A stretch of DNA of 64,000 nt. Source: Nemertoderma westbladi. Its lineage: Eukaryota > Animalia > Xenacoelomorpha. Both the position numbers and the translations under genes were made by a program. The stretch is from assembly GCA_032718475.1 (NCBI GenBank), contig JAUCBJ010002030.1, forward strand, positions 1-64,000. The letters run 5' to 3'. How positions within the stretch are numbered: position 1 is the stretch's first letter; each line of letters opens with the position of its first letter. The notes under the pieces are model-generated. The model made no database searches and was not told where the DNA came from. It saw only the letters and a list, made by a program, of their open reading frames with translations. Shown here piece after piece: positions 10,901 to 59,333 of the stretch.

Positions 10901-10934
10901 CAAGGCGTACTATATACGTATATAGTACGCCTTG
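10901..10934. mobile_element. 17+17-bp P-superfamily-like transposon footprint
   Basis: Perfect palindrome caaggcgtactatatac|gtatatagtacgccttg flanked by the 8-bp direct repeat ATTATGAG (10893-10900, 10935-10942). Confidence 0.7.
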
Positions 10935-11256
10935 ATTATGAGTGCCAAGAGATCTGCTAAAGTATTTTCTTGTGCATTTTCCTCCATGCAAGTGCCGAAT
11001 AATTATTCAGAATATAAACTATCATACAAGTTGTCGGAAGGTGAAATTCCCTATACGAGTGAAAAGTCTTATATATGAGCCATTCTCACATGAAAATAAA
11101 AGGTCAAATAGTGGGTAAACGTGCCATACAGTACCCAAAATGTTTCAATACTTAATAATAAATATTTTTGCTTACAAAATTAAACAATTTAAATGATTAC
11201 TTCCCTTCTAAGCTATAATAGTTAGTATCCCAAATAATGGGTATGAGTAAGTAGGA

Positions 11257-21545: not shown

Positions 21546-21722
21546 ATCGGACTTGGTTGTATATCGGAAACATGGTTGAAACGCCACATAGCATCAAAAT
21601 CAATACAATTATCAGGTTACAACATTGAAAGGCAGGATAGGAGAAAGAAGAAAGGGGGAGGTGTCTTATTTTACATACCTAGTGGCATTAAATACAATAC
21701 AAGGGGGGATATTAAATTAGGG

Positions 21723-23621
21723 TAATGCGAAGAGACAGTAACAATACCTGCAATATCCTACTGTAAAGTTTGTGAATCAAATCATAAATCCGACCTTCTC
21801 ACCAAACAGTAAACTCTAAGTAAGCGAATATATTGCAGTATCGATCTCTTATAACCGGTGAGGCAGAAAACAGTCTACGAGCAGACAAACTTCGATAAAA
21901 CAAAATCCCGCGCAGCGAATCCTAAAATCAGGCTGACTCACTGACGGACTAAAGGGCTCGTATACTTTGCCGCGGTGTGATTTATATGGTTGGGCAAAGA
22001 GACGCTAGCTAGGTACAGAGGCAGAGATTTGGAGATGTCTAACTAGCGGGCAAAACACAGTAAGGACGAAAGTTAATTTTATATATTTTGAGGTGTAAAT
22101 AATTTCTAACGCGCGTGTGTTAATTCTGAACGGTCAAAAGCAGTTTTGCTCCTTCACATGTATAATTACTGGGTACGGTGTGCATTTTACGAATATTCTA
22201 ATTTTGTAACTTGTAGGTCCAATACTCACGAATGATAAGGTTCCTTCCCCTCTTGCGTATTTCCAGGACTCAAATTCAGGCATAAGGTTAATGCTACGCC
22301 CAGAATTCGGCAATTTTAATTTACCAGGTCCCTAATACTAAGAAGAAATGTGTTAGTTTACTACAGTAGGCGTACGGTTACGAATAGCTATCCTGGCTCT
22401 TATCTAGAATTTTAGTCACCTAGGTAGGCTGGGTAACTTCCTATCAGGACGTTGGCGGGGACACGGTAGATGTTAGTATATCCCTAATAGCCTCAATTTA
22501 TTTGCGCCTAGTTGTAAACTGCCCTACCGCCTGAATGGTACAATCCCAATTCAGGTGAAACACAGCAACCCTCCTAGCCTACAAGTTCTAATGCAATGGA
22601 CACCGTTGTACTGCAAATAGTCGCAAACGCACCTGTACTTAGCAAGAGTTAGGCGTACAGTTTGCTGCACCCTACCAATGTGTATGCTTCGTACCGGCGT
22701 GCCTACGTCCTATCTGCGTACTAGTATCTGCCTGCTCTCTCCCTCCCCCGTAGGAATATGAAGGTCTACTGTGGTTCTTTCCTGAATCAAGACAGTACAG
22801 TCCCTAAGATGTAATTTTAGGCTCACAGCGTGTCACTACTTCTACCTTTGATCTTTGGTCTTACGCTTAGGTAGCAAGGCGTCGAACGCTGTCTAACCTT
22901 TCAGGCGATGGGCGAATAACTAAGGTGGTATTGCGGGTTGTCTCCTGTCTACATTCCCTTGATGTTCCCGTTCATTGCTGCGGCCCGATCTCTAGCCGGC
23001 CATCCTGTTCCTAAGAGTGTTCACCGTAGTGAATCATGGTGAAAAGAAAAGCAGATAGCGGTATTTCTGAATTTATTGCAGATAATAATACAAAATGTAA
23101 TCTGAAAACTAATGACAGAATAAACAAGATTGAGTAACTAATAAGATTAGATAGATTGCACTGAGATTGATAACTAATGAACAAATCGCACCTTTATATA
23201 GCAAATTTGTGCTGCAATCAATCGAGAAAATTCTCGATTGTTCTATAGGTTCTAACAGGTTTTTAAAGATAGCTATTGGTCCAGCTAATATATAACTTGC
23301 ACGACATTGGATACAATCTAATAACTGCAGTCTCATTGGTTAATCTAGGTACAAACAAATGCAATTTAATTTGTAGCGGTTAATTTAAATGAGTTGAAAT
23401 TCTGTACAAAAAATAATTAGCACTTACTAGGATTCGAACTCAATACCTACTACACATATAATTTCCAACGCTCTACCGACTGAGCTACTGAACCACTTGA
23501 CTAAACGTCGTACAATAGATATAATAAATACAAATGAGGACTCAAAGTAATCTTTTACAAAGTTAATTCGAATAAAATAAAATTTTGAAAATCCACGGCA
23601 TTTAGGGAATATAATTCTATA
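21723..23621 (-). repeat. BEL-2 3' LTR
   Basis: Direct repeat of 38305-41127 once the CRE insertion is removed; abuts the short PPT-like ATGGAGCGG (23630-23622). Confidence 0.96.
23408..23494 (-). ncRNA. tRNA-derived Pol III-like cassette in BEL-2 U3 (second copy at 40914-41000); not a functional tRNA
   Basis: A box TAGCTCAGTCGG, B box GAGTTCGAATCC, T6 run about 17 nt downstream. Acceptor and anticodon stems are not formed. Confidence 0.6.
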
Positions 23622-24510
23622 CCGCTCCATGAAAACAGGATATTATCGTGCATAAAATATACGGTTTTCACCAATAATCAATCAAACTATAGAATACTTA
23701 GGGCGTACTTACATATTTACAATTAAATTTTAAACAATACTTCCTTTCTACATAATGATTCGATACAAAATAATTACAAATTCAAACTTTACGTAGTTAA
23801 GGCTTTACTAAGTAAGTACAATATAAATCTAAATTAAATTCACCAATATAAATCTATTGCATCTCAATATTGCATAAATTCATACAATTACAAATACAAA
23901 TAAATGAAAATCATAAGAAAGGCTCGCGAGTCTTCCATCTACTATTGCATCTCAAATATTGCATAAATTCAAATAATTACGAATACTTACGTGCCTAAAT
24001 GTAGATTGCATAAGTTCGGAATAATTACAAATATGAGTCTTTCTAAGCACAAAACTTTCTAACTATAAAACTTTCTAAATACAAAATATAACACTTTACA
24101 AATGAAACTATAAGAAAGGCCCACGAGTCTTCCATCTACTCTTACTTTCTATTTCACTGTAAATACAAATACTGCTTATAAGATATAAATTGCATAGTAT
24201 TCGGAACAATATAAATTGCATAAGTTCGGAATAATCACAAATATAAAATATAAATTCTTACTAAATATAAATCTTTACTAAATATAAATATAAACTGCAT
24301 AAGTTTAGAATAATATAAACTCCTTTACATCTCAAATATGAAACATAAATCTTTCAAATATAAGTTCCTTCTAAATATAAACTTTCTAAATTTCATAAAT
24401 TCGGAACAATACAAATTGTATAAGTTCGGATAAATATAAAATATATAACTCAAATAAATCACAAATTCACAAGAAAGGCTCACGAGTCTTCTGTCCACCC
24501 TTGCCCTCCT

Positions 24511-27500
24511 TTATCGCTTAGTTGATCGAGCCCTGCCGCGTCCTCGAAAACTGCGCACAGGTGACTTTGCTCGCGATATGGGACTTGTGGGGCGAGTCAC
24601 TGGTTTCGTTTGGACGTTGAGAGACGGTGCGACTATTTCCTCGCAAATTCGTCTATTTGGCATCCCAAAACCTCGACCGATTCCTCGTGACCGATCAGTT
24701 GTCACTACAGTTGGTAGAACGTCTGGGAACGCGCGAGAAGCGGACGACACAGACCCAAGAGTAGCTTGCGCCCCCTTTTGATCAGCTGGTGTATGTCCCG
24801 ATCCTCCTGTTGGTTCTCTAGGAAGCGATACCGTATCCCGAGTAATTCGAATGGTCGGCTCGACTCCCTTGCGTTCTTCTATATTAATAGACTTCTTTAA
24901 CTGTTGGCCCACTTTCTGGACCCGTATGATCCTACCCTGTCCGTCCTCCCGAGGGTGACGTGCAGACGGCGCAACCGGAGTGGCTGGTATATTTGTCGCC
25001 TCTAGGACCTCCTCTTCCTCGAATACGCTCGCTCGTATACGTTTATGGTAAAACGCGGCTCGGTACGCCCATGCGACGGTTAACCAAGCTCCTTTATTCC
25101 GCTTTTCAGTTCGGAAACGATCGAATTCACCATACGTGATACGATTTACGACTTTCTGAAAATTCCACGTGTTTTTGTTATCCGGGTGAATCTGTAGTAG
25201 ATACTCGCGCACTACTCGGAATCCACTGTCGTGGGGCAAAATATCGACTACCTCGATAAGTTCGTCATATTGGGGCATAGCGGAGATATATCCTTCCGAC
25301 ATCATCGTTTGGGGATTTACCGCCCAAAATCCAAGATGCGCCCTCATCGGAAATCGTCTTCTTTGTGCCGATACATGTTCGTCGGCTAAATCTTCCCACT
25401 CATCAAATAATTTTCTCACGAGTTTTACAGATTCGTGTTCATAAGGTATGTCTCTTAGTTGGCATTCAGATGCTCGATGTCCCTTTATATTGCAATAAGT
25501 ACATTGAGCCATAAATCTCCAGCAAGTATAAAAGGTATGAGACCCTTGATCTCCACACCATCCACAGATTAGCTGAGTCGTAGTAATGTGCTTTCCACTG
25601 CACTTGGTCATATGATGTCCAGCGACGCCACATTTACCACACATCGTATTGGCAGGGTACCACACTCGTTCGTATATAAGATCTCCAATCGGTCGAGCGC
25701 TTCCGCCCACACTATAATCGTAATCATCTGGATCTATGGGTTGGTAGGTTTCTGAAGGTTGTATACAAACTATAGCATCTGTTGCTTCAAGTTGTCGAAT
25801 CTCCGTCTGAGATTTCTTCGGGAGGTTCCTTTCTATCTCAAGAAGTTCCTCTAAAGGATCGTCAGCGATCGTAGTAGTTACTTCGAAATCATCACCAAGG
25901 TGACCGATAGGCGCGCGCGTCTGCCGTGATTCATCCGTAATCTCCACGATACGTTCTCCTTCATAGGGTAACAATGTAAACATAGATGGTCTTTCGATAA
26001 GAGATCCCGCACAGCGAAGATACACGTCTCGAAATATACTAAATCCTGCTCGAGTAAAGGCATTACACTGAGCGTCGGAGTTGTAGAAGGGTTCAAGGAA
26101 TCGTCTAAACACATCGGTATGAATTCTCCCTTCCATGTAGAACGTATGATCTTCTCCGAGACAAAGTGGATGTCTTTTGAGAGTCCGAGACACAATGTCG
26201 GCGATTAGGCAAACATTCACTGACGACTCTATTGCTAAATAATATTGTAAGACCGCTCTTGGAGGTGACGTAATAGCCCAATACACGCATCCTCTCCATT
26301 TAAGCTGTGATTCAAACTCACTCATATCTGGAGTATCACCTTCTCCATAAGTCTCAATATACTTGTTTCTCTTACTTTCCTTATAATCCCAATTGAATAA
26401 CAGGTAGGAAATGTATCCAGTTCCAGTCTTCTGAGTATTATACTCACGAAAATATCCCTGTTCTATAGACCACAAAATAAGAGGTTGAGTGTCGACGTAA
26501 GGTGTCGGTAGTCGGTCATCGCTGTCCGTCATGCCGGCGAAGTCGCTAATTAAGTCCTCCCTTACTCCTGATCCAATCTTTACAACAGTTTTATCTAAAA
26601 TGATGTTTCTTACCATCTTCGGTAGCATTCTAGCGTCGATATTACAAGCTTGGTCCATCTTCTTTACTATGTCGGTGATAAGATGGTGTCGCTTTGTATT
26701 CGCTGGAGGTATCGGCATTCGTTTGTCGCTCCTCTGTCTACTGAAAACGTGCAGGACTCCGTCCGCCGCTCTAATTTGTATAGTCTTAGAAGTCAAACTC
26801 TGCTGATGACTGCCGCCCTCGTTATCGTAAAACATGTAACCATTTTCATGAAACGATCTAAACGTCCTATTCCATTCATCCAACAATTCTTCCGAAGGTT
26901 GCCAAATCTTCTCTATGTCCTTATCATCTTCGAAACGAATAACCTTACCTCGCCAATCCGCGGCAATATCTGTATCCGACTCGAAGGTTCCGGTTCCAAT
27001 CCATAAACGAATCGTCTTGGTTAAATATCCTTTCAGATTACTCGGAGCTATATCGGCACCAGCTCTATCCAGTTCCTTAAAGTCTTGAATATGAGGTGGA
27101 ACGTTGTACACGACCTTTTGAGTAATATGTCTACGTAAATCATATATCTTACTCATATCGCTGAAAACAACTGCAGGAAGAAACTCCAAGTTTGAAATGA
27201 TTTCTGGATGATCCACGATGGGTATTTCGTACGTCGTATCCTGTCGGACTGGTATACTAATAGGAAAATTGAGTGTCGTACTCAATGGTTTCGTAGTTAA
27301 AGTACTATATGGTTGCATTTCTCTTGTCCTCTCCGGGGATGCAATCTGTAGTCTCTGAATAACGTTTTGAGCAAAGTTTATGCTCTCGAAAACTTCCGGT
27401 GTCATCTCCTTAGCTGGAGTTTGATCGTGTGACGTCCAATGGCAAGGTAGGCTCGCGAGTCTTCCGCCCCATTCTTCCATCTCACCTTTCTCGAAAGCCT

Positions 27501-28344
27501 TGTAGGCTCTGTATAGGCTAAGAGCTTCTTTCTTTTCGCGGGTTGACTGATTTGCCTCGTCCAGCGTAAGTTCAAATACATCGGGATCAACAACCTTAGG
27601 TGGGTAAATGACAGTTTCTCCCGCCTTTGGTCCGGTCATAGCAAATGAATGATATGGATTCGATAAAGGATACCCTCCTTCCTGGTAGCGTAGTTGTTGA
27701 TGGTTCGAACACCTCGCCAATATCGGTTCGGGATTTTCCTTATTCAAATGCATCGGAATCGCATTTCGTTGTTCGCGCATACAAGAACCGCATTGATAAT
27801 AAAGTTTATAAACTGAAAATGCTTCCTTGGTTTCTCTATCGTCCCCTCGAGTTCGTCTGTAAAGATGCATTCCATCGAATTCATCTCTTACCGCGGGCAT
27901 AGGTTCGTGCGCCTTTAGGTATTGCATGGTATGATACAAACGACTAATTTCAGTATCGGGGTCTTCGCTAATGTCTCCCGTATCACACAAAGCGTCGTAC
28001 GGGTAAAGTTCATTGAAGGTTTTGCGCAAACTTTCGATTCTTTCGTTTAATGCATTTTGTCTTCTCTTTAATACGTTCGAGTCATATTTAGTTCTCGCGA
28101 GTTTCGCTGTACTTTCCGATAATTCCTTTATACCGAATATAGTGTAGTCCTTGGCTCCAAATCTTTCAAATGGCGCTGCTGCCTCCTCTTGGATATCATA
28201 TCCCCATCTCGGCTCTCCCTGTATCACTTTCTCCATAATTAGGGGTGTAGTTACATAATCATTACTACTAGAGGGAATACAACAGAGTTTTGTAGTTAGT
28301 TGTGAGGAGACGTGAGAGTTTCGTCTGCCCTTTGGGCTCGACAA
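24511..28344 (-). CDS. BEL-2 ORF3: novel Cys/His domain, DEDDy (WRN/EXD2/Mut-7-like) 3'-5' exonuclease domain and 3 CCHC zinc knuckles; first ATG at 28236
   Basis: 1277 open codons between pol and the 3' LTR. ExoI YMFYDNEG, TIQI, LPKMVRNIILDKTVVKIGSGVRED (ExoII), YVDTQ, ExoIII-like QYYLAIE. Knuckles CGKCGVAGHHMTKC, CGWCGDQGSHTFYTC, CTYCNIKGHRASEC. Confidence 0.85.
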   Translation of the reverse strand: MSSPKGRRNSHVSSQLTTKLCCIPSSSNDYVTTPLIMEKVIQGEPRWGYDIQEEAAAPFERFGAKDYTIFGIKELSESTAKLARTKYDSNVLKRRQNALNERIESLRKTFNELYPYDALCDTGDISEDPDTEISRLYHTMQYLKAHEPMPAVRDEFDGMHLYRRTRGDDRETKEAFSVYKLYYQCGSCMREQRNAIPMHLNKENPEPILARCSNHQQLRYQEGGYPLSNPYHSFAMTGPKAGETVIYPPKVVDPDVFELTLDEANQSTREKKEALSLYRAYKAFEKGEMEEWGGRLASLPCHWTSHDQTPAKEMTPEVFESINFAQNVIQRLQIASPERTREMQPYSTLTTKPLSTTLNFPISIPVRQDTTYEIPIVDHPEIISNLEFLPAVVFSDMSKIYDLRRHITQKVVYNVPPHIQDFKELDRAGADIAPSNLKGYLTKTIRLWIGTGTFESDTDIAADWRGKVIRFEDDKDIEKIWQPSEELLDEWNRTFRSFHENGYMFYDNEGGSHQQSLTSKTIQIRAADGVLHVFSRQRSDKRMPIPPANTKRHHLITDIVKKMDQACNIDARMLPKMVRNIILDKTVVKIGSGVREDLISDFAGMTDSDDRLPTPYVDTQPLILWSIEQGYFREYNTQKTGTGYISYLLFNWDYKESKRNKYIETYGEGDTPDMSEFESQLKWRGCVYWAITSPPRAVLQYYLAIESSVNVCLIADIVSRTLKRHPLCLGEDHTFYMEGRIHTDVFRRFLEPFYNSDAQCNAFTRAGFSIFRDVYLRCAGSLIERPSMFTLLPYEGERIVEITDESRQTRAPIGHLGDDFEVTTTIADDPLEELLEIERNLPKKSQTEIRQLEATDAIVCIQPSETYQPIDPDDYDYSVGGSARPIGDLIYERVWYPANTMCGKCGVAGHHMTKCSGKHITTTQLICGWCGDQGSHTFYTCWRFMAQCTYCNIKGHRASECQLRDIPYEHESVKLVRKLFDEWEDLADEHVSAQRRRFPMRAHLGFWAVNPQTMMSEGYISAMPQYDELIEVVDILPHDSGFRVVREYLLQIHPDNKNTWNFQKVVNRITYGEFDRFRTEKRNKGAWLTVAWAYRAAFYHKRIRASVFEEEEVLEATNIPATPVAPSARHPREDGQGRIIRVQKVGQQLKKSINIEERKGVEPTIRITRDTVSLPREPTGGSGHTPADQKGAQATLGSVSSASRAFPDVLPTVVTTDRSRGIGRGFGMPNRRICEEIVAPSLNVQTKPVTRPTSPISRAKSPVRSFRGRGRARSTKR

Positions 28345-28899
28345 CGCTCTAACCTCCTACCCATAGCCTAAGATCTAGGGTTTCTTTAATGACACGCTGC
28401 TTCTTATCTAAAATTTTTTGCCGAAATAAAAACGAATTTGGGCTAAACTGGCTGTGAGTCTAAAATACTCACTTTTTGATCCCAAACTATTATCAGAAAA
28501 TAAGCAATCAAGAATTAGTAATAAATATAGGGGAGTCTATTTATTGACGTAACTTATTGAAACAAGACCGTGTAAAATTTTAATTAAAAATTTAAGAAAG
28601 GCTCGCAAGTCTTCCTCTCTTGTTTCTCTAATTTTAAGTTCCACCCGACTGTACCCTGAAATCTATTCACTGGAGAAAATTTTAAAAATTTTTCAAATCC
28701 AAATGGATTGTCTAAAATTTCGAAAATGTCTCAATATTGTGAGTTCCAAGTAGAATTCCATTTCTTATACCTACAAATCCCGCTCCTATGTGACACATAA
28801 GGGTACCACCCTCAATGTTCACATATAAAGACAATGGAATTCTACCGCTGTCCTTACTATGGTGTACAGGTACGTGGAAATCTATTTGTAAACTCCTAA

Positions 28900-31800
28900 T
28901 TATTTACTAATATTAGGTGGAGATTTGTAGTCTCCAGAATCGTTACGAGTCTCTTCAAGAAGTACGAGACGTTGAGTCGGTCTGTCTACTGTACGACCGT
29001 CAATTGTCCGTACCGTCACAGTTCTTGTCACTCCATCCATAGATGGATGTGTGTCTAAAATTACACCTGTTATCCAGAAGCGTCTTTTTAGATTCACTTC
29101 CGCTAACAGCACGTGATCTCCCGGCTTTAATGCGCGGGTGTTATTGTACCAAGTTGTTCTGGCAGAAATAGAGGGCAAATAATGGTTTTGCCATATTTCC
29201 CAGAATTTGTTAGCTAGTAGTTGCGTGATTTTCCACGCCTTTCTACCGTAGCTATCGCTTTCTATTGGAATAGAAATAGGCGTCAATGTGGTCGGTGCCT
29301 GCATTAGCAGGTGTGCCGGTGTCAAAGCAAACTGAGATTGTTTGTCATCGGGTACTAATACTATTGGTCTAGTATTTAGTATTGCCTCGATTTCAACAAA
29401 CAATGTTGTCAGTTGGTCGTCTGTCAATATGTGGTTTACTAGAATGACCTTTGCCATGGCTGTCTTTATAGATCTAATCAATCTCTCCCAGACTCCGCCT
29501 CTCCATGGACTATCTGGAGGATTAAACTTCCAAACAATCTTGTAAGGACGTAGTTCGTTTGAGATTTGATCATGATCTAATTTCTTAAAGGCTCTAGCAA
29601 TCTCATTCCGAGCACCAACAAAGTTTGTCCCTTGGTCTGAGTACAAGCATTTCACTAGTCCGCGTCTAGCGATAAATCGCCGCAATGCTAGTATAAACGC
29701 GTTGGTGGAAAGATCCATCACACGTTCAATATGAACTGCCCTACTGGACATACATGTGAAAATCAGTCCCCAGCGTTTTACTAGTATACGTCCACGTTTC
29801 GTATGTATGGGACCAAAGCAATCAATTCCAGTCTCTGTAAAAGGTGGTCTGAATGCTTGAAGTCGTGCTTGTGGAAGTTCACTCATTTCTTGGGTACCTA
29901 TTCTAGAATGTACCTTTTTACAAATAATACACGTACGTGTCACTGAACTTAATGCTTTACTGGGTCTAATTAATACAAATCTTGTACGTAAGTAGGAAAG
30001 ACAGTGGTGTCTTCCAGCGTGTTTCAGATGTAAATGTGCGTCCAGTATCATTGCACGTTGTAGTTCGTGATGCTGCGGTATTATTATTGGGTATCTAAAG
30101 TTTGTGTTAAAGTCAATGTTTTGAAGCCGAGATTTATGACAAATTAAGCCATTATAAATAATCGGACTCCAACTCAGTATTGGTGACGACTTGATTGGTT
30201 GACCTTGATTTATAGATGTGAATTCGCGTGCGAAATATCGCAGTTGGTAATGGCGAATTAATTTAATTTCACACCTGTCAATCTCAGCCAATGTAAGTCG
30301 ACGTGTAAAGTCTCGTTTGCCTTTAACGTATTGTACAAAACGTACAATCCACGCTAATTTTCGGCAAGCGTTTGTCCAAGAGTCTGTTAAGTTTACAATA
30401 CGGTCGACGTGAGTATTTGTGACGTCATCAGGTAAGTCAATGGAGATTTTGGAAGGTTTTGATTTACTAGAAGGGCCCACGGGTCCGCCGGTAAGTATTC
30501 CCTTGTTGACTGTTGATCCGTCCGGGTCTACAAGTAATTTGTCCTTCTTCGTCTTCTTACCTTGATTGTCAGTACTTTGTAAGTCGATCGTTAATGGTGG
30601 TTTGAACTCTATGGGGTCACTGGGTTTCGGTAAACTTATTTTTCTGCCGACATTAATCCCAGGTCTTACCATAGGTTGCAAGTTTGGTATGTCTCTTGAG
30701 CGCAAAGTAACACCTGTATTTACATTAGCGTAGGTACTACCCACATCTGTAATACATGAGGTTTCACCGTGCTTACGGTTGCTCAAGTGTGTCAAATTTG
30801 GTAGTTTGTCAATACAAGGCCGCTCCAATAGAGAAACTGCGGCTTCACTATTTGTCAGTATGTCACTAGTGTCTGGTAGAACATTTTGTGATATGTCTGG
30901 CAAAATGTCTGGTTGGCTGTCTAGTAACGTGTCTAGTTGACCGTCTGGCGATATGTCTGGTGTAGAAAGGCTCGCAAGTCTTCCTCTCTTGACCTTTGAA
31001 GTTATATCTTTCCATTTCGCCTTCGGTTTTTTCTTGAGTTTAGCCGCCGTCTTTTTCTTTGCTTTCCCTTTCTTTGGTTTTTTGATTTCCGCGTCTTTAG
31101 GGATAGTGTTAGACTTGTTGTCATATAGTGGTGGCCAATTTAGTGTTGATCTTTGTAAGAATTGTGGTCCGTGTTGCCAAAATTCTTTGTTCTCCGGTTT
31201 ACAGAATTCCTCAGGCATCATTCCTCTTGACGCAATATCGGCTGGGTTTTGTGGTCCGGGACAATGTCTCCAATCTTCTTTTATTGAACGGTCTAGAATT
31301 TCCGCGCGACGGTTAGCTACGAATGTCTTGAATTCAAGTGTGTCGTTGTTTATGTAAAATAAAACCAACGTCGCGTCAGTCCAATAAAATATCTGTAAAC
31401 TTGACTGTAGTTCTGTCTGTATAAGGTTCACAATTGTGGTTGACAGTGTTGCGGCTTGTAGCTCAGCTCGTGGTGTCGTCATATACTTAGTAGGCATTGT
31501 TTTTGCCTTAGAAGTAATGAGCGAAACATCGAATTCTTCTGAGTCTACTTGTCTGCGCAAGTACGCTGCCACACCAAAACCGTTGTCACTGGCGTCCGAA
31601 AAACAATGTAATTCCAAGTTGTCAGGAAATGTTGTTTGTAATGGAAAGTAGACTCTGGGTATGGAATAATCCTCTAGCGAAGATAATTCTGCCTCCCAGG
31701 TCTTCCATAAGTCCACTTGGTCTGATGAGATCGGCTCGTCCCATGTCAGTCCATCCTTCCAAATACTGCGCATATAAATGCGGGCTTGCAGTATTATTGG

Positions 31801-34365
31801 ACTGATGAATCCTAATGGATCGAACAATCGGCTCAATTTTGACAAGCATGATCTCTTTGTCAGTGTGTTTTCTTGACTGTCCAGTCTCACCCTCACTCGA
31901 AAGTTGTCTGTGTTTGGGTCCCAAAAGAGCCCCAACACCTTGGTCGTCGGTAGTGGTTCGAACTCTAGGTCTATGTCACCACCTCCACGCTCAGTCGTTC
32001 CGAATGAGTCTACTAATTCGGCACTGTTTGAGGCGAATTTGGTGAGGTTAAAACCTCCGCCCGCTAAGCAGTCCCGTAATTGATGTGCTACTGTTACAGC
32101 ACGTTCTACTGTGTCACAACTCTGTAAACCGTCGTCGACGTAAAAGTCACGCTCCACAATCCTAATTATCTCTGGGTCATATAAATGTTTCTGATCCCTA
32201 GCGGCTTGTTTTAGGGCGTACATCGTACAGTTTGGGCTGTCTCTGGCACCGAAAACGCGAACTTGCATTTGGTAAGTCGCCGGTGGTAGACTTAAGTCTC
32301 CTTCCGGATACCAGAGGAACCTCAAACTGTCTCTGTCTTGCTCTAACGCTCTCACTTGGTGAAACATAGCTTCAACGTCACAAGTAAAAGCTACTTGACG
32401 CTGACGGAAGCGCATAATCACCCCCATAAGATAATTATTCATGTTTGGTCCATCCATCAACTCGCTATTGAGGGACATTCCCTCAAACAGAGCCGCACAG
32501 TCATTGACTACACGTACTTTGTCTGGTTTGTCGGGGTGTCTCACATAGTGATGTGGCAGGTAGTATGTCTGGTTAGTCACTATCTCTGGGTTAGTCATTC
32601 GGATAGCGTATCCCTTAGTCAAATACGTCTCCATCTGAGTGTTGTACTGCAGATGGGCTTTCTCGTCCTTTAATAGACGTTGCCGTATTGAGTGTAGACG
32701 TCTTAAAGCTAGTGGGTAGTTATTTATAAGTTTAGGACTTTGGCTACGCCATAACATCCCCACCTCATAATGTCCGTCTTTCGCCTGGCGGATAGTATCT
32801 TCCATGATCCTCAAAGATTGTTTCTCCTGTTCCGACATACATGGTTCGTAGCTACCAGGTTCAGCTGTATCTTGTTCTAACCACCTGATAGTCTTCTCCG
32901 TTAATTCTTTGTCCAATGCAGCTTGTTCCACTTGATGATTTCTCAACGCGTCATCATCGATATCGACGGGCATTGTTGAGGTTGTTGGGGTAGGTAGACT
33001 CGCAAGCCTTCCGGCGTTATCATCTGTCGTCGATGGAATCTCTAGCTGACTCGTCTTCTCCCCAAGTTCTAAACTCACCTGGTGAATTAGCTGCTCCTTG
33101 TGACTTATCTTACTAGTTACACGTCTGTCATGTTTTGTATGTAAGGTAGTATGGTCCACGTCGTGTGAAAAGGAATGAATTGAATTTGTAGTTAATAAAC
33201 TACATGTACTTTGTACATCGTCTTCCTCGTCACTTATGTCCAGTGTGCGCACAGGCGCTCGAGTATACCACCCTATCGGCGTTCTACAGGCGTATGCGTT
33301 TCCCGCTACGACTGCCGATGGTCTGGTTTCCCACACTTGATGTAGGTTGAATTGGTCTGTCCCGATCAGCATGGCTACCGATCTATAATTGACAGGACAT
33401 TCAGGTACACCAAGGTGTCTGAAATATTTACGGTCCTCCAAGGATTGTTCTGGGACAGGACCTAGTAGGTTACTAAAGTCTTTGGTGGCCACAAAAGTCA
33501 AATCCTTGAAGGGTAACAAAGACCTCTCCTTTTCGCTGTGTTGCGATTTTGGAAGAAGAGTGTCTAAGTTTAACTTAACTCGTGTCACTGGTATTGCACG
33601 TTGTCCGTGCATACTACTTACGGTGTAACTGACGCGCTTACCTTGTCTGAGATCCGTCACTACATCAGCTATCTGCTCATCCACGTAGCTGTGAGATGAG
33701 GCTGAATCCAGGATAGCGTAGATTCTCTTGCTCCCCTTTGTGCCAGTAATCTTAATTGGAATTACGCTGAATCCCTTTAGTTGGTCAGTCGTCAGAAGCG
33801 CGATCGATGGTTGGTCGTCTCCATCAGAATATACGTCGTCGTCTTCTGACTCTTCGTCCAACGATCCGGATTGTTCTGAGAAGCAATCCTTGATATGTGT
33901 CACAAAGGTTGGAGTCGTTTTCGATTCTCGATTTTTGTAGGCCGCATCACATCTCGCTGCTGCTTCCGGGTGTTCCCTGGCGAAGCGTTTTGTTGGCGTG
34001 TGGCTGTCTGTGTGGAGCAGACCGTCGTGGTTGTGTCCACAGGATGGACAAGTGTTGGTATTTGGGCAATCTTTGCGAACGTGTCCGTGTCGCGTACACC
34101 GCCAACAAGAGTCCAATGGCCGTATCTGCAGCCGTCGTTCTTCCGAGTTTAACTCGCGAAACTGTCGACAACCTCTCAACTTGTGACCGATATACCGCTT
34201 GCCTAAATGCTCGCAGTATTGGCAGCCGCTGAAGTCGGTACCGAGTTGCTGTCTAGTCTGTTTTGTCCCAATGGGCGCAGATACCCTACTACCGTCCGAG
34301 AATTGTCGGGTTTCCGTCGGTGTGGCGTAAGTGGCCGTCTTGGTGGATGTTGTCTGGGGTTTTTG
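28900..34365 (-). CDS. pol: BEL-2 NC-pol: zinc knuckles, aspartic protease, RT, RNase H, integrase
   Basis: The frame is open from the gag stop. CQYC..H..C / CWRC..H..C / CPSC..H..H knuckles, AILDSAS, CDVEAMFHQV, FYVDD, HCFSDAS, NPADIASRG, HHCC, GIDCFG-SDQGTNF-WERL. Confidence 0.95.
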   Translation of the reverse strand, partial: QKPQTTSTKTATYATPTETRQFSDGSRVSAPIGTKQTRQQLGTDFSGCQYCEHLGKRYIGHKLRGCRQFRELNSEERRLQIRPLDSCWRCTRHGHVRKDCPNTNTCPSCGHNHDGLLHTDSHTPTKRFAREHPEAAARCDAAYKNRESKTTPTFVTHIKDCFSEQSGSLDEESEDDDVYSDGDDQPSIALLTTDQLKGFSVIPIKITGTKGSKRIYAILDSASSHSYVDEQIADVVTDLRQGKRVSYTVSSMHGQRAIPVTRVKLNLDTLLPKSQHSEKERSLLPFKDLTFVATKDFSNLLGPVPEQSLEDRKYFRHLGVPECPVNYRSVAMLIGTDQFNLHQVWETRPSAVVAGNAYACRTPIGWYTRAPVRTLDISDEEDDVQSTCSLLTTNSIHSFSHDVDHTTLHTKHDRRVTSKISHKEQLIHQVSLELGEKTSQLEIPSTTDDNAGRLASLPTPTTSTMPVDIDDDALRNHQVEQAALDKELTEKTIRWLEQDTAEPGSYEPCMSEQEKQSLRIMEDTIRQAKDGHYEVGMLWRSQSPKLINNYPLALRRLHSIRQRLLKDEKAHLQYNTQMETYLTKGYAIRMTNPEIVTNQTYYLPHHYVRHPDKPDKVRVVNDCAALFEGMSLNSELMDGPNMNNYLMGVIMRFRQRQVAFTCDVEAMFHQVRALEQDRDSLRFLWYPEGDLSLPPATYQMQVRVFGARDSPNCTMYALKQAARDQKHLYDPEIIRIVERDFYVDDGLQSCDTVERAVTVAHQLRDCLAGGGFNLTKFASNSAELVDSFGTTERGGGDIDLEFEPLPTTKVLGLFWDPNTDNFRVRVRLDSQENTLTKRSCLSKLSRLFDPLGFISPIILQARIYMRSIWKDGLTWDEPISSDQVDLWKTWEAELSSLEDYSIPRVYFPLQTTFPDNLELHCFSDASDNGFGVAAYLRRQVDSEEFDVSLITSKAKTMPTKYMTTPRAELQAATLSTTIVNLIQTELQSSLQIFYWTDATLVLFYINNDTLEFKTFVANRRAEILDRSIKEDWRHCPGPQNPADIASRGMMPEEFCKPENKEFWQHGPQFLQRSTLNWPPLYDNKSNTIPKDAEIKKPKKGKAKKKTAAKLKKKPKAKWKDITSKVKRGRLASLSTPDISPDGQLDTLLDSQPDILPDISQNVLPDTSDILTNSEAAVSLLERPCIDKLPNLTHLSNRKHGETSCITDVGSTYANVNTGVTLRSRDIPNLQPMVRPGINVGRKISLPKPSDPIEFKPPLTIDLQSTDNQGKKTKKDKLLVDPDGSTVNKGILTGGPVGPSSKSKPSKISIDLPDDVTNTHVDRIVNLTDSWTNACRKLAWIVRFVQYVKGKRDFTRRLTLAEIDRCEIKLIRHYQLRYFAREFTSINQGQPIKSSPILSWSPIIYNGLICHKSRLQNIDFNTNFRYPIIIPQHHELQRAMILDAHLHLKHAGRHHCLSYLRTRFVLIRPSKALSSVTRTCIICKKVHSRIGTQEMSELPQARLQAFRPPFTETGIDCFGPIHTKRGRILVKRWGLIFTCMSSRAVHIERVMDLSTNAFILALRRFIARRGLVKCLYSDQGTNFVGARNEIARAFKKLDHDQISNELRPYKIVWKFNPPDSPWRGGVWERLIRSIKTAMAKVILVNHILTDDQLTTLFVEIEAILNTRPIVLVPDDKQSQFALTPAHLLMQAPTTLTPISIPIESDSYGRKAWKITQLLANKFWEIWQNHYLPSISARTTWYNNTRALKPGDHVLLAEVNLKRRFWITGVILDTHPSMDGVTRTVTVRTIDGRTVDRPTQRLVLLEETRNDSGDYKSPPNISK

Positions 34366-37300
34366 TCAGTTTGAGGATGGCAAGGTGATTCCTTCTGCCA
34401 CGATGTGCTGGTCAGTGTAGTTGGATTGAGTTTCTACCACTGCCTCCCTGGATATCAAAATGTACACATCCTCCAGTTTTAAGAATCCATCCCGCTCTTC
34501 TCGCTGGTATTCGATCTTCCTCCACTCCCGACGAAGTCGATGGTGGAGTCGTCCTATGATCTTTAATAGGACTGTAGGGGTATTCCCGTAGTCAAGTTGT
34601 CCAATGGATCTCAAAGTAGTGATAGCGTTCTTTATCTCGTCAGCCAGTTTCAATAAGTCTACGGGTTTAGTAATAGCCCCTCCCTTACAGAGTTCCTCTA
34701 TCACTGACCTGGCCATGCTGACTGTACCTCTGTAGATCGAAGTTAAACGATCGTACGCTAGTTCGAAAGCGTCCGGTACACCAACAAAGGTCTCCGCCAA
34801 ACGTTTAGGTTCTCCTGACAACGTTTGAAGCAGGTAATTAAACTTCTCCCGTGATGTAAAGGCGCACACGGCGATCTGAGATTCGATATAGTCTACGAAA
34901 GTGTGCCAGTGTTTTGAACTACCGGAAAACTTCGGTGGTTGTTGTACCGGCAATCCCTGTCTGGCTGCGAATTTCGCTATCTCCTCGGCAACGTTCAGAA
35001 TTTCGCGTCCTTGGTTGGTAATCTGGTTGATATCCCTTCTTGGCGCTTTTCCCTGATACGATGTGTGTTTTGAAGGTACCGGTCTTTGTGGTTCCTTCGG
35101 GTGTCTATTGTGTTCGAATTCAGTGTTCCTCGAACTATCGGTTTGAACTTCCTCCAGACGTTCCTCAATCTGAGCCAACTTGTTAACAACTGGTCGCAGG
35201 ATGTCGGCGAACTGTTGTATACTGATTGCGTCCGTTGGTTGTAACGCCTTCTGTGTTGGTGTATTCTGTGGAGGATTGTCTACAAAGGAGTTGTCTGAAC
35301 GCTCGCGTTTATATTCATCGGCCGCCCCTGTTCTAAATACCTCGCGTTTCGGGTAATCCGATTCGCTCGAAGTACTACTATCATCTGGATATGGTGGTCG
35401 ACATGTTCGCGTCCGTTGCGTCGTCCGAATTCTAACGTTTCGCCTCGGAACATCGTCCACTGATCTCCGCTGCTCGGTAGGCTCACAAGTCTTCCTTGAA
35501 GTCGTAGATTGCGATGTAAACTGGTTGAACGGTCGCATATCCACTGGTCTCCGTTGTTCGGTAGGCTCACAAGTCTTCCTCGAAGTCGTAGATTGCGATG
35601 TAAACTGGACCGGTGGTCGAATAGCCGCCTTTGAATCAACTGGCCTTGTAGGCCGAAATGTCATTGGGTATTCGTAGTGTGTAACCGGTTTAGGTGTCAA
35701 AGGTGGACTCACGTGTTTTGTCGTTAGTAGTGCAGGTCCGGTCAATAAACTACTACGATCTGTAATCGGTGGGTTACTTACCTTGACTTTCAGAATAGGC
35801 GACGACGTTGCTCTTGGCGGTGTAAACTTGTCCGGAATAACAAACCTGTGTTCCGTCGCACCATGGATAGGAGAAATATCACTACTACCCGCAATCGAAA
35901 CAGGTTTCTTAGTTGTAACTGGTGCGAACATAGGGGTTACTTGAGGGAATCTTTGACATAAGTCTTTAACTAATTGTCGTTCCCGTCCGGGTGCTCCTAC
36001 GCTTCCTTCCTTCTTCCGTTCCTGAATTTGGCGATGTCTTACCTCTAACTGGTCCAAATCATGTCCGTCACGAGATCTCATTGATCGATCGCGGGCCTTT
36101 TGATCCAGATCCTCCTCGGCGTTCGCTAATTCTCTCGCCTTCTTCTCGAGTTCAAAATGAAGTTTAGCTGTCTTCTCTCGTTGTTCCGTTTGTTGTCGTT
36201 GCGCCTCAAACTCCGCTTGTCGTATAGCGGATTGAGCTTTTATTTGCCGTGTTTTCATTTCGGCCCGTGCTTCCGAAACTAATCGTTCTCGCTCTAATTC
36301 CGCCACTGCCGTTTGTCGCTCTAGTTCTGCCATTTGTCGCTCTAATTCCGCCGCTGCCGTTTGTCGCTCTAGTTCGGCCGCTGCCGTTTGTCGCTTTAAT
36401 TCTGCCGTTTGTCGCTCTAATTCCGCCGCTGCCGTTTGTCGCTCTAGTTCTGCCGCTGCGTTTCGTTGCGCTAAATCAGCCGCTGCCGTTCGTTGAGCAA
36501 TGTCTACCTCTAACCTTTCTACTTCAGCTGCTTCTAATTCAGCTTGTTCCTGTAGATGAGAGATTCTCGCTACATTCGCAACGCGTAGCTTCTCTTCTTC
36601 TGCTGCTGCCTGCATCACTAGAAGTTGAGCTTGTTCCTCCATTTCTCGTCGTTGTCGGTAGAATTCTTGCTGTTGTCGAGCAACTTCTGACGTAACCATA
36701 CTTCCCTCGCCAATTTCGCTACGAATACTTACCAACGATTGATCCAATATTCCCGTTGCCGATTCGATTCGTACGGGTGAAGTTTCCCTCGTATATTCCG
36801 GCACGGTTTCCAAATCGCCGACGTCGACGCACATACGTAAGTGATCCGTCAGGTGTTTCAATTGTCCATCCAGTCGGTACAGTTCCTGTTCTTCCTCGGG
36901 TTGTAATAATTCGTCCGAAACTGACTCACCTAACAACTGGTCCGCTTGTTCCTGTTGTATCTGCCTAATCGTCGACTTAAACTGAATCAGTTTCTCTCTA
37001 GCGATCATTAGTTTATCGAGGATTCTAAGTTGAGTATCCATGTCCTGTCTCTGTCTAGCTAGATCTTGTAGACCAATTAGGTTATCTACGGACTTGTGTA
37101 CTCTACTTTGTACTCTAACCTGGAGGGTGTAGAACTCGAATCGAGACATCGGAGCGGTCAACTCGTTTAAAATGCGTTGGCCTTCTCCAATACTCCTGGT
37201 TATATGCGCCATGTATCCGCCGACGCTTCTAACCACACTCTCCTGACTTCCTGCTGAACTTACCATGTCTGTTTCCCTGTATCTAGGTTGTGGAACAGTT

Positions 37301-37494
37301 AGAAAGTCCTCGGTCCTGCCGTCGCCTCGTACTACGGCATCCGGTACTCCCGTTGGATGTACTGGTGACGCACACGGTGTAGGTTCGGTAGGCTCGCGAG
37401 TCTTCCCCTGTTGTTCTTCCGCTGCTGACTTATCTCCGTCGCATGAGTCATAGTCGGTAGGTGTATTCTTCGTATAGTCTTGTTTGTCACTCAT
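34366..37494 (-). CDS. gag: BEL-2 gag (coiled-coil region plus BEL capsid-like domain)
   Basis: 1042 aa; AAAELERQT tandem repeats; PPKFSGSSKHWHTF...KFNYLLQTLSGEP typical of BEL/Pao gag. Confidence 0.9.
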   Translation of the reverse strand: MSDKQDYTKNTPTDYDSCDGDKSAAEEQQGKTREPTEPTPCASPVHPTGVPDAVVRGDGRTEDFLTVPQPRYRETDMVSSAGSQESVVRSVGGYMAHITRSIGEGQRILNELTAPMSRFEFYTLQVRVQSRVHKSVDNLIGLQDLARQRQDMDTQLRILDKLMIAREKLIQFKSTIRQIQQEQADQLLGESVSDELLQPEEEQELYRLDGQLKHLTDHLRMCVDVGDLETVPEYTRETSPVRIESATGILDQSLVSIRSEIGEGSMVTSEVARQQQEFYRQRREMEEQAQLLVMQAAAEEEKLRVANVARISHLQEQAELEAAEVERLEVDIAQRTAAADLAQRNAAAELERQTAAAELERQTAELKRQTAAAELERQTAAAELERQMAELERQTAVAELERERLVSEARAEMKTRQIKAQSAIRQAEFEAQRQQTEQREKTAKLHFELEKKARELANAEEDLDQKARDRSMRSRDGHDLDQLEVRHRQIQERKKEGSVGAPGRERQLVKDLCQRFPQVTPMFAPVTTKKPVSIAGSSDISPIHGATEHRFVIPDKFTPPRATSSPILKVKVSNPPITDRSSLLTGPALLTTKHVSPPLTPKPVTHYEYPMTFRPTRPVDSKAAIRPPVQFTSQSTTSRKTCEPTEQRRPVDMRPFNQFTSQSTTSRKTCEPTEQRRSVDDVPRRNVRIRTTQRTRTCRPPYPDDSSTSSESDYPKREVFRTGAADEYKRERSDNSFVDNPPQNTPTQKALQPTDAISIQQFADILRPVVNKLAQIEERLEEVQTDSSRNTEFEHNRHPKEPQRPVPSKHTSYQGKAPRRDINQITNQGREILNVAEEIAKFAARQGLPVQQPPKFSGSSKHWHTFVDYIESQIAVCAFTSREKFNYLLQTLSGEPKRLAETFVGVPDAFELAYDRLTSIYRGTVSMARSVIEELCKGGAITKPVDLLKLADEIKNAITTLRSIGQLDYGNTPTVLLKIIGRLHHRLRREWRKIEYQREERDGFLKLEDVYILISREAVVETQSNYTDQHIVAEGITLPSSN

Positions 37495-38293
37495 TTCGGT
37501 AGTTGTAAGTCAAGTAAAGTGAGTGTCAAAGTATCAAACTTACCATATTTTATCTAAACGGTACTAATTACAGTCATATAAAATTAGCCTACCGGCCGAT
37601 TTTATAGCAGATGGATAAAATTAGCCTAAACGGCCAATTTTACAGCAAATAAATGTCACGGAATAAGTATATAATAAAATTAGCCTAGCGGCCAATTTTA
37701 TAACAAATAAATCGGATAACGATATGCGTTATCAAAAGGTAAATTAAATACAATAATACGGACTAATTCAGCAATGAACAAAGAAATCGTACGGAATGCA
37801 TAAATACTTGAGGCAGTGGAACCCACAATAATTTTAACTAATACGGTAATGCCTAACTTATTTATGCAACTTTTCGAACTCACCCACTCCAATAATTCTC
37901 CAGAAAAACAGATTCCCAGATACAAACCGGACGTGAACCTTTCCGTTTTTAACGTTGCGGACGAAGCGCGATTTTCCCAACCAAAGTTGTTGAGTTATCT
38001 ATCTCCCAAACTTGCTAAACACGGTCTTGCTCCCGTTACAGTCTAGAAATGAGTTCTGAATCCTGAAAAAACAAAAGAGTTAGGTTTTACTTTTTACGAA
38101 AATTTTGTACCGGTACAATATGGTATTTAAACCCTTTTAAACACCGGTATTCAATTCCAAAATATTTTACACGCGGTTCAAATCAAATTTTTATTTCAAA
38201 AAATTAGCACTTAGCTAATCAAATACAAATTTTTACCTCAAAATACAAAATTTTCAAATAACTTTAGTCCTACCGAACCGTAGTTCAGTAAAA

Positions 38294-38304
38294 CATATTC
38301 CTAC
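38294..38304 (-). promoter_or_regulatory. BEL-2 non-tRNA primer-binding site (putative self-priming)
   Basis: GTAGGAATATG abuts the 5' LTR and is exactly complementary to sense-strand CATATTCCTAC at 39342-39332 (3' LTR copy 22760-22750). Confidence 0.75.
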
Positions 38305-41127: not shown

Positions 41128-41209
41128 TAGGGAACAATAGCACTATACAACGAATAATAATAAAAGCAATACATGCAATTATAAGAAAGAAAATAAAAAA
41201 TATGACTCA

Positions 41210-47727: not shown

Positions 47728-48869
47728 TGTTCGCGCTTTTAGACCTTTAGCAGTTTAACCTGCCAATTTTAGTTGTGCTTTTGTTTATAAATCGACTTTA
47801 GCCTATATAAATTATTTAGTGTACTGAAATTACATCAGCCGAAGCCAGTCTGTGCGCGACCATTCACCCACAGTTAAGGGAGACTGGATTCGGATGCTTT
47901 GATAGTGATTGCGGTGTAGACCTACTGTATTATTCGATTGATCGTTACTATATAATCTCTGACAATATATTTACTTTCGGGGAAATATTAACAGTTCCTT
48001 TAGGACGTGGCGCTTTAAGTATAAAAACAGAGTTATGACTTATACTAATCACAACTAGATGGCCACTACTGAGTTTCGTAAAAAGCGCATTCTTTAGGAG
48101 ATGCTTATTACTTCACACTACTTCACACTGACTTCACACTACTTCACACTGAATCTGCCGACCATCACTGAATTTGATCATATATAAGGAGGATCGCAAC
48201 TGACACATGTAGGGATTATGAAATAGCATTTAATTCACACAAAAACCACTATAATGTAAGTCGCAGTTGCTACCGGTAAACCTGTTCCTCTCACCTTCAG
48301 TAATCAAGAAGATTGGGGGTTTTATGATTATTCATTGGTATTCTCCAAATATATCAGCAATATACATCAATATCACAACAATTAATAACAGAAGTAAAAT
48401 AATGCGGTGAACAGTCAGTATGTGTTACTTATGCAGTGTTCCATGTGCAGCAATGTTATGCAGTGTGTCGTTCGTGATTCAGATTGGTGATCCAAGTCAG
48501 TTAATAGTTTTACGTTCTTGTAATCAAAGCCATCAGATGTTTAGGCCAAAGTCTGAAACTTCCACAACAGAAGTACAGAATAACTCTAAGCCGGTTCTCT
48601 GGCTCAGAAAGGTAAACAAATACCGTAATGCATTGCGCGGTTTTCCATAGGCCCCTGTCCAACATAAAGTGAAAATCGCTCTGATTGGCTGAGCAGAACA
48701 AAGAGGTTCCACGTCTACAGGAAATCAGCTGACAGATTTCGTCATCTGAGCTCCAATCTTTTAGAGTATTATGCGCATTGCGGCAAAAACGACTTGTTAT
48801 GTCCGCTAAAGCACCTACACTGCGCATTGCGGGGAAAAATGACTTGTTATGTCCGCAAAAGCTTTTACA
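47728..48869 (-). repeat. BEL-3 3' LTR
   Basis: Direct repeat of 59334-60489 with several substitutions and indels. Confidence 0.95.
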
Positions 48870-48947
48870 CCGCTCCCAGAAAATGGGATTTAATTCTATA
48901 AAATATAAAAAATCACAGTTTCTAAAATATAAAAATACTCTAAACAA

Positions 48948-57444: not shown

Positions 57445-57574
57445 GATTTATTTTACAGTTGAATGCCTACTACTGTAACGACAGTTAAAGCAAGTCTAGT
57501 AATTCAGTATCAACTGTAAGCCTCGTAATTAATTACCGATACCGTTACTCAGTGTAACATGATATATATAATTA

Positions 57575-57830
57575 ATATTAAAATACCGGTATACTTATAG
57601 TATATATATAAGTATTATTACAGACTAGAATTAGTTACAGAATACCGGTATATAATTTCAGGCTAAATTTATATAAATAAATATAATAAGCCTACCGTAA
57701 ATACCGGTATACACCTATGGTATATATAAGTATTATTATAGACTAGGATTAGTCACAGAATACCGGTATATAATTTCAGCCTAAATTTATATAAATATAT
57801 ATAAAAATCCTACTTTGAATACCGGTAATG
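57575..57830. repeat. About 118-bp tandem duplication with ataccggta motifs in the BEL-3 5' UTR
   Basis: aaataccggtatac...tatatataagtattatta...cagaataccggtatataatttcag occurs twice. Confidence 0.75.
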
Positions 57831-59321: not shown

Positions 59322-59333
59322 TAAAACTATTAA
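59322..59333 (-). promoter_or_regulatory. BEL-3 non-tRNA primer-binding site (putative self-priming)
   Basis: TTAATAGTTTTA abuts the 5' LTR and is exactly complementary to sense-strand TAAAACTATTAA at 60133-60122 (3' LTR copy 48512-48501). Confidence 0.75.

Follow-up and report, generated by a model that had tools for sequence, protein, structure and literature searches.

A probable DEDDy-like exonuclease gene in the env position of a BEL/Pao retrotransposon from Nemertoderma westbladi

A gene occupying the env position of a long terminal repeat (LTR) retrotransposon need not be an env gene. The rotifer elements Juno, Vesta, and Athena/Terminon, for example, carry there a DEDDy-like gene, open reading frame (ORF) 3, which is free of membrane segments, with the DEED-motif ORF3s of Juno and Vesta being of untested activity (Rodriguez et al., PMC5408684; the account is repeated in reviews, PMC5718144, PMC6431247, and PMC6338049). 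There is, that is, precedent for DEDDy ORFs among bdelloid rotifer retroelements, just as an earlier note on the DNA considered here had stated. That DNA, ‘the window’, is the first 64,000 nt of contig JAUCBJ010002030.1 of Nemertoderma westbladi (assembly GCA_032718475.1). It holds a minus-strand BEL/Pao LTR retrotransposon, element 1, which likewise bears in its env position an ORF3, one that very likely encodes a DEDDy-like exonuclease domain.

CERV, as encoded by Cer1 of C. elegans, is a second point of reference. This too is the product of a non-env ORF in the env position, is expressed from a spliced mRNA, and combines an enzyme-like domain with a Cys-rich part, but Cer1 is a gypsy element, the CERV domain is G-protein-like rather than an exonuclease, and export of genomic RNA has been demonstrated for CERV (PMC10309623). 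The VANC protein of Arabidopsis VANDAL is a third, being likewise an element-encoded accessory protein that goes along with short motifs repeated within the element. VANDAL is instead a plant DNA transposon, the VANC abstract names no nuclease domain, and binding has been shown for VANC, whereas ORF3 and the repeated motif of element 1 are tied by co-occurrence only (PMC5735166).

Relative to the rotifer ORF3s, element 1 is new in its host superfamily, in its architecture, and in the alteration of its active site. The host of the present ORF3 is BEL/Pao, whereas Juno and Vesta are gypsy-like (the rotifer family being compared here by description). In terms of active site, the ORF3 motif reads D-E-D-E, which places it outside of the DEED group. 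Malik et al. 2000 or Frame et al. 2001 reportedly described extra domains, perhaps exonuclease, in nematode Cer elements. In terms of architecture, ORF3 possesses within its 1241 aa three CCHC zinc knuckles as well as an extra N-terminal domain, and ‘CCHC’ occurs 0 times in the main text of PMC5408684. A literature search, with subscription papers, figures, supplements, and Repbase outside of its scope, found no exonuclease ORF3 in BEL/Pao, nor any account of Glu at the ExoIII position; in the BEL/Pao survey PMC3118150 the word ‘exonuclease’ occurs 0 times.

An exonuclease-like domain in the env position

ORF3 of element 1 is found with pol on one side and the 3' LTR on the other, within a minus-strand frame that is open from 28356 to 24511, i.e., 1281 codons stop to stop (see Table 1 for feature coordinates). 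The earlier note had described an intact ORF of about 1240 aa without obvious signal peptide or membrane segment, and this holds. Counting from the first Met there are 1241 aa, the maximal 19-residue Kyte-Doolittle mean is 1.38, and neither a signal peptide nor a membrane segment is seen, as judged by hydropathy alone, without a dedicated predictor. There also is no R-x-K/R-R furin site, and only 2 NxS/T are present in the 1241 aa. As both a hydrophobic segment and a furin site are missing, ORF3 is not env. The longer, 1277-aa form that had also been entertained is unlikely, since it would start upstream of the splice acceptor (28268) and since many copies have lost one base at 28288, which shows that the frame ahead of the Met is not conserved.

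The residues previously assigned to the active site all are present, but their numbering must be revised, its starting point having been a non-ATG codon that precedes the Met by 36 codons. From the Met, the former D507, E509, D597, Y702, and E706 are D471, E473, D561, Y666, and E670, with codons at 26826, 26820, 26556, 26241, and 26229, respectively. Three CCHC knuckles were recovered exactly where they had been reported, with a Pfam zf-CCHC match at E 0.004, and the C-terminus of the protein is basic and of low complexity.

An exhaustive homologue search over 1.84 billion representative sequences returned 4 matches. Three of these, P0002-P0004 (E 4e-5 to 9e-4), are environmental proteins from ENA, 558-621 aa in length, which have in common with ORF3 the exonuclease, an acidic linker, three CCHC knuckles, and the F-E-x-x-A-D motif. 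The remaining match, P0001, came through knuckles only and was excluded from alignments. All five ORF3 active-site positions align with the D-T-E, GS-x4-D, and Y-x3-D of all three homologues, and a profile built from P0002-P0004 alone finds ORF3 at E 1.4e-20 among the six-frame segments of the window, versus 0.15 for the next best segment. Given this alignment with three independent homologues, along with the profile match, the ORF3 motifs are beyond chance.

Taking the motifs individually, ExoI is D471-N-E473, which aligns with the D-T-E of 3/3 homologues and with EXD2, and which is preceded by a strand in the structural model. ExoII has D561 within K-I-G-S-G-V-R-E-D, to be compared with K-x-G-S-x4-D (3/3 homologues) and with the K-V-G-V-G-C-S-E-D of EXD2. 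It is with ExoIII that ORF3 departs, possessing Y666-x3-E670 where P0002-P0004, which keep the full DEDDy set, all have Y-x3-D. The previously remarked upon substitution of Glu for Asp is therefore upheld, and because of it ORF3 is classed as a DEDDy-derived variant rather than as a canonical member.

A four-sequence profile, A1, has as its sole match below 0.005 the human EXD2 exonuclease 6k17 (E 1e-6), with profile A2 matching the same chain at E 1.5e-6. Profile columns fall upon EXD2 Asp108, Glu110, Asp171, Tyr242, and Asp246, i.e., upon catalytic residues as these are named in PMC6648332. Human EXD2, WRN, Nibbler, Mut-7, and EXD1 have the same spacing of the five active-site positions as ORF3. 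What separates ORF3 from this EXD2 group is a low identity, the presence of long insertions, a Glu as the final acidic residue, its fusion to knuckles, and its mobile-element context. Of the homologues, P0004 matches DNA_pol_A_exo1 at E 0.011. Rows for HIV reverse transcriptase (RT) also came up in the profile search, at E 0.008 or weaker and over a single short stretch, and were taken as chance.

Several results weigh against this assignment. The ORF3 domain alone has no exonuclease match in Pfam or PDB sequences. AlphaFold models are poor, with predicted local distance difference test (pLDDT) scores of 40 for the domain and 33 for a 617-aa model, which was not used. Foldseek, as run with the domain model, gives EXD2 as best at E 0.014 and nothing at <=0.001. 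The best Z in the VIA comparison is 6.1, versus a bar of 8 (root-mean-square deviation 5.5, 160 aligned). Weak as it is, however, the structure evidence is in agreement: EXD2 chains make up 6 of the 10 top Foldseek rows (identity 15-17%), and all 50 of the rows listed by VIA, as read from titles of which four give no family name, are DnaQ-type nucleases or polymerases with such a domain. The domain may be held with high confidence to be DEDDy/DnaQ-like. The earlier DEDDy-like assignment is sustained, that is, by homologue alignment and EXD2 profile match, with DnaQ-like folds found among structure matches (if at weak Z), acidic residues conserved in homologues, and the ORF, as considered below, multi-copy and with a synonymous excess.

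Word-based protein searches did not add relatives, with 0/5268 candidates related to ORF3 residues 400-950, 0/4475 to alignment A1 (the members of which were not recovered either), and P0004 finding itself alone among 7996 scored. DNA loci of P0002-P0004 were not confirmed in viral contigs, metagenome contigs, or prokaryote genomes. Exonuclease and knuckles likewise are combined in euglenozoan DNA_pol_A_exo1 plus zf-CCHC proteins, an ESM Atlas cluster of 57. This is the top feature match for P0002 (0.87) and P0004 (0.88), not for the window protein, and with scores below 0.9 and 158 and 165 shared features these are leads only.

The window supplies its own point of comparison in a second BEL/Pao element, element 2 or the ‘sister’, which is 12.8 kb in length with an ORF3 at 49346-51166. 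The ORF3 N-terminal domains of the two elements match at 31% over 133 aa (E 4e-11). Neither exonuclease nor knuckles, however, are found with the element 2 ORF3, whether by homologue profile over the six-frame segments of the window or by Pfam. As we infer it, the simplest history would be one in which an ORF3 already in place gained, behind it, a module of exonuclease and knuckles resembling P0002-P0004, though loss from the sister also is possible.

Copies, selection, and expression

Copies of the element were examined via the contigs of public sequencing runs, where 5 of 9 listed runs contain all or some of the stretch, with four of the five sharing an organism label. Over the 1051-bp domain there are 681 contigs from run X1, 733 from X2, 257 from X3, and 18 from X4, which range from more than 99% to less than 90% alike. 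At the best-supported 40 of about 90 variable places in the exonuclease domain, 29 changes are synonymous and 11 are not, with 30/40 at third positions, as compared with a neutral expectation of 21-29% synonymous (p <=2e-8; omega about 0.10-0.16). The signal is mostly from 30 places that segregate among copies (23 synonymous, 7 not). Within these same 40 places the codons of E473 and D561 display silent changes only, and across the domain no indel reaches >=5% in the contigs. A check of this dN/dS type had been suggested previously, and what it reveals is a multi-copy ORF possessing a synonymous excess.

Some tempering is called for. The estimate treats each change singly and covers only those best 40 places, while the 10 near-fixed ones (>=85% of X1 depth differing from this copy) split only 6 to 4. 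Some copies, furthermore, have frame-shifting deletions which remove the exonuclease, and in X4 one such exonuclease-deleting variant has a depth of 479, versus 290.5 for the contig with intact ORF3. A whole-element top-40 list gives synonymous to non-synonymous ratios of 6:5 for pol, 7:7 for gag, and 4:3 for ORF3, but as sites are few and mostly private to this copy these do not constitute a fair comparison of genes. Overall, the ORF3 gene shows signs, at the level of these sequences, of being under purifying selection. The feature is real and it probably is functional.

ORF3 probably is read from a spliced, subgenomic mRNA. The splice acceptor is 31 nt before the ORF3 Met and the intron is 9.6 kb (Table 1), and one X4 contig joins 37884 to 28267 at a depth of 210.9, as compared with the 290.5 of the ORF3 contig. 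This junction points to an env-like subgenomic message, whether X4 represents RNA or instead a DNA copy of spliced RNA. To be held against it, the junction is a single contig, with a short side of 30 letters placed at 85% likeness, from a run the kind of which is guessed, and none is found in X1, X3, or X5. Also in X4, summed contig depth is ~3,000-11,000 at 22834-25918 and ~500 over 21600-22833, a step that might mark where an RNA ends, close to the AATAAA of LTR position 545, though contigs cannot show ends.

What ORF3 may do for its element

The reading favored here, though possible rather than probable, is that ORF3 is an RNA-binding 3'-5' exonuclease which blunts host small-RNA silencing. 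A module consisting of exonuclease, three knuckles, and C-terminal motif would have joined an older ORF3 N-terminal domain, one that still stands alone in the sister. The knuckles would grip single-stranded RNA, with the DEDDy-like site then trimming 3' ends, though the ExoIII Glu might render it slow or inactive. Substrates would be silencing-directing small RNAs, their precursors, or sliced fragments, and 11 dispersed sequence motifs, as described below, may recruit the ORF3 protein to its own element.

Counter-silencing is favored on the basis of separate expression, RNA-type partners (i.e., the knuckles, and a set of look-alikes that includes EXD2, Nibbler, and EXD1), a nuclease that does not depend on how the element is primed, and the fact that unrelated retroelements have captured such domains repeatedly. 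As ORF3 probably is expressed separately, outside of Gag-Pol, a regulator fits better than does an RT cofactor. Among rotifer LTR elements, exonuclease ORF3s are described as having been gained independently at least 2 times (PMC5408684), which suggests a general benefit rather than a step that is peculiar to self-priming. Elsewhere, arenavirus ExoN is reported to dampen innate signaling (PMC7968707), and VANC proteins to bind motifs within their own transposon (PMC5735166).

Against counter-silencing must be set that the ORF3 enzyme, going by its residues, may be dead, as ExoIII Asp has become Glu and ExoI is D-N-E rather than D-T-E. The 3' ends of PIWI-interacting RNAs, moreover, are mostly 2'-O-methylated and as such resistant to enzymes of this kind. 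The rotifer study, too, reports that copy number was not clearly tied to ORF3 (PMC5408684).

The dispersed motif is 21 nt and near-palindromic, with 6 copies at <=3 mismatches, where none are expected, and 11 sense-strand copies at <=6 mismatches. These are confined to the internal region of element 1, with none in its LTRs or in element 2, for which no comparable dispersed motif was found. They are spaced by 0.1-2.5 kb, occurring in gag, pol, ORF3, and non-coding DNA. As coding copies are in two codon phases, and other copies are non-coding, the signal lies in nucleic acid. CpG positions vary as TpG, and folding of five motif regions gave no stable common hairpin (z -0.71 to 1.09). All that ties the motif to ORF3 as found in element 1 is that both are present there and both absent from the sister. 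It is quite improbable that the two together represent a sequence-specific self-protection, i.e., one in which a motif-guided, EXD2/Nibbler-like nuclease would remove silencing RNAs. This would be an animal analogue of plant VANC that acts at the level of RNA and carries an enzyme besides, and it would involve a mobile exonuclease-knuckle module found also as separate proteins of 560-620 aa.

The same motif figures in the best of the rival explanations, itself doubtful, which is that ORF3 is a Rev/CERV-like regulator that binds the 21-nt sites and thereby aids the export or stability of unspliced genomic RNA, the exonuclease serving as a weak or dead RNA-binding module. A spliced ORF3 mRNA with a 9.6-kb intron would pose the difficulty of export that, for Cer1, CERV overcomes, and CERV too is in the env position, is made from a spliced mRNA, and possesses a Cys-rich loop and a dead enzyme-like domain (PMC10309623). 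Consistent with such a regulator as well are a motif found on the sense strand only, the ExoIII Glu, and the basic, low-complexity C-terminus. But 6 of the 11 motif copies (37405 to 28614) are intronic while 5 are retained in the spliced mRNA, so that unspliced RNA is not alone in being marked; the five motif regions folded are without a stable common hairpin; and three homologues keep the full DEDDy set, with CERV likened only by description.

Other explanations turn on replication. Self-priming is probable for both elements, based on their primer-binding sites, which in each case are self-complementary: 11/11 with element 1 (2/4000 shuffles) and 12/12 with element 2 (0/4000 shuffles). Neither element has a tRNA-type primer site, no tRNA library having been compared. 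In element 1 the AATAAA signals nearest to the LTR 11-mer (position 862) are at LTR positions 545 and 1120, and as these are not adjacent the RNA does not naturally end at the 11-mer. A primer derived from a poly(A) site or splice junction was considered but is not needed, the 11-mer being contiguous and far from AATAAA. Right behind the primer-binding site there is a 12-bp hairpin (38294-38267, minus strand; z -2.4 for a 71-nt stretch), which possibly belongs to the priming structure. With Tf1/sushi self-priming there is likewise an 11-nt complement between LTR and primer-binding site, and no tRNA site, though in those accounts Tf1-type self-priming is described for Ty3/gypsy and some copia lineages, not BEL/Pao, and relies on RNase H rather than an exonuclease (PMC7175516, PMC6317226).

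The earlier note had proposed maturing of the self-primer as one possible role of the nuclease. A rather unlikely possibility is that ORF3 is packaged via its knuckles and trims either the self-primer, once RNase H has cut, or complementary DNA, at its 3' overhangs, prior to integration. The exact 11-nt complement, which directly abuts the LTR, is suggestive of this, as are unusual TA...TA LTR ends, knuckles which by their zf-CCHC match resemble nucleocapsid, and the proposal that Dada transposase DEDDy domains process 3' ends (PMC3706591). The sister, however, has its 12-nt self-complementary site without having the exonuclease (use in trans being possible), and self-priming therefore does not travel with the nuclease. 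In element 1, furthermore, the D-E-D-D motifs of RNase H (Peptidase_A17 region) are intact, and it is RNase H alone that is reported to make the Tf1 primer (PMC7175516). Lastly, trimming of the RNA 3' tail back to the 11-mer would presumably also delete the R region that is needed for strand transfer. Maturation of the self-primer is weakened accordingly.

Highly improbable is that the nuclease proofreads for RT, thereby permitting a long genome as does nidovirus ExoN, another of the roles suggested previously. DnaQ-fold domains do proofread within polymerases, and element 1 at 18.5 kb exceeds the 4.2-10 kb given for BEL/Pao elements (PMC3118150). Yet the exonuclease is not fused to RT but is instead on a separate message, copies differ at many sites, and the sister is 12.8 kb, albeit with most of pol missing, while lacking an exonuclease; proofreading is left without support. 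Close to untenable, finally, is that the exonuclease came from a host or mobile gene, brings the element no benefit, and is now decaying as a passenger, since that explanation, despite the ExoIII Glu, lack of a direct Pfam match, and existence of deletion derivatives, is largely refuted by the 29/40 synonymous changes and lack of common indels, and runs counter also to an open 1241-aa frame with splice signals placed for its expression. Counter-silencing, held tentatively, is what remains favored.

The host element, its surroundings, and meaning

Table 1. Features of elements 1 and 2 within the 64,000-nt window (all minus strand).
Feature	Position	Strand	Details
Element 1, whole BEL/Pao LTR retrotransposon	21723..41127	minus	19,405 bp; flanking 5-bp target-site duplication CCCTA
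3' LTR	21723..23621	minus	1899 bp; non-canonical ends TA...TA
21-nt near-palindromic motif, 11 copies	23915..37405	minus (sense strand)	in two codon phases and in non-coding DNA
Starts of 21-nt motif	37405, 35578, 35494, 33011, 30983, 28614, 27464, 25924 (weakest), 24491, 24132, 23935	minus	
ORF3	24511..28236	minus	1241 aa counted from first Met at 28236
ORF3 conserved motif behind knuckles	25309..25410	minus	F/W-E-x-x-A-D ... G-F-x-A; common to homologues
ORF3 CCHC zinc knuckles (three)	25462..25641	minus	25641-25600, 25566-25522, 25503-25462
ORF3 DEDDy/DnaQ-like exonuclease domain	26152..26949	minus	D471, E473, D561, Y666, E670
ORF3 N-terminal domain	27670..28062	minus	C-x2-C...C-x2-H pattern; common to ORF3 of element 2; no Pfam family
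Intron of inferred subgenomic ORF3 mRNA	28268..37883	minus	GTGAGT donor (37883); AG at 28268 behind a pyrimidine tract
Knuckles, protease (DSAS), RT (YVDD), RNase H, integrase, DUF5641	28900..34365	minus	Pfam and motifs
gag frame (coiled-coil part and DUF1759)	34366..37509	minus	stops at in-frame TGA before nucleocapsid knuckles
Primer-binding site	38294..38304	minus	abuts 5' LTR; without TGG; exact complement of LTR 11-mer
5' LTR	38305..41127	minus	split by 916-bp insertion at 39948-40863
LTR 11-mer, candidate self-primer	39332..39342	minus	LTR position 862; 3' LTR copy 22750-22760
Element 2, second BEL/Pao element	47728..60489	minus	TG...CA ends; target-site duplication TTGTA; most of pol missing

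Element 1 is 18,489 bp upon subtraction of a nested LINE (long interspersed nuclear element) piece. It displays the BEL/Pao order of protease, RT, RNase H, and integrase, along with two LTRs and a short target-site duplication, and Pfam matches include DUF1759 (E 7e-11), Peptidase_A17 (E 2e-42), and DUF5641 (E 2e-20). LTR ends of TG...CA are usual in BEL/Pao elements, as a common rather than a defining trait. With element 1 a CA is present 3 nt inside of the right LTR end, that end being also the end of the self-primer match, and in the sister the TG...CA is behind the same GGAGCGG tract as is seen with the element 1 LTR. BEL/Pao elements are described as known from metazoans only (PMC3601003).

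The 5' and 3' LTRs of element 1 have 7 differences over 264 + 1643 aligned bases, and from so few differences a recent insertion of the element follows. Nested within the 5' LTR is a non-LTR 3' fragment, the 916-bp insertion, which has an 8-bp duplication and is younger than the LTR. Judged from its translation it resembles a non-LTR element's 3' end, and a Pfam search gave no family match. The in-frame TGA (34366-34368), which is followed by CAA, falls between the gag frame and the knuckles and pol; it is either a nonsense change of this copy or a programmed read-through. Near the LTR start there is a tRNA-like A-box/B-box pair and then a T run (23487-23431 and 40993-40937, minus strand), which could act as an insulator or as a promoter for polymerase III. 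That this segment encodes a tRNA primer was rejected, there being neither an ARAGORN nor an Rfam call and its folding being no better than that of shuffles (z -0.26).

Element 1 adjoins the start of a plus-strand endonuclease-RT LINE frame (41141-43849; 902 aa; RVT_1 E 1e-36). Decayed, minus-strand BEL/Pao fragments are found at 19142-21484 (DUF5641 E 5e-24) and 44397-47675, a 20-bp tandem array of ~1.1 kb at 13029-14175, and several inverted repeats resembling miniature inverted-repeat transposable elements at 400-9800.

Animal retrotransposons are under strong small-RNA control and, to our knowledge, element-encoded counter-measures are little known. Should ORF3 only trim intermediates, or bind RNA while enzymatically dead, then it would still be a BEL/Pao accessory gene not described before, though one that would chiefly concern specialists. 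The rotifer study left open the role of DEDDy ORF3s (PMC5408684), and with element 1 there now is a second superfamily in which such a gene occurs, along with evidence that its nuclease domain is under selection, a probable route of expression by splicing, a domain-free control in the form of the sister, and a motif that is a candidate target.

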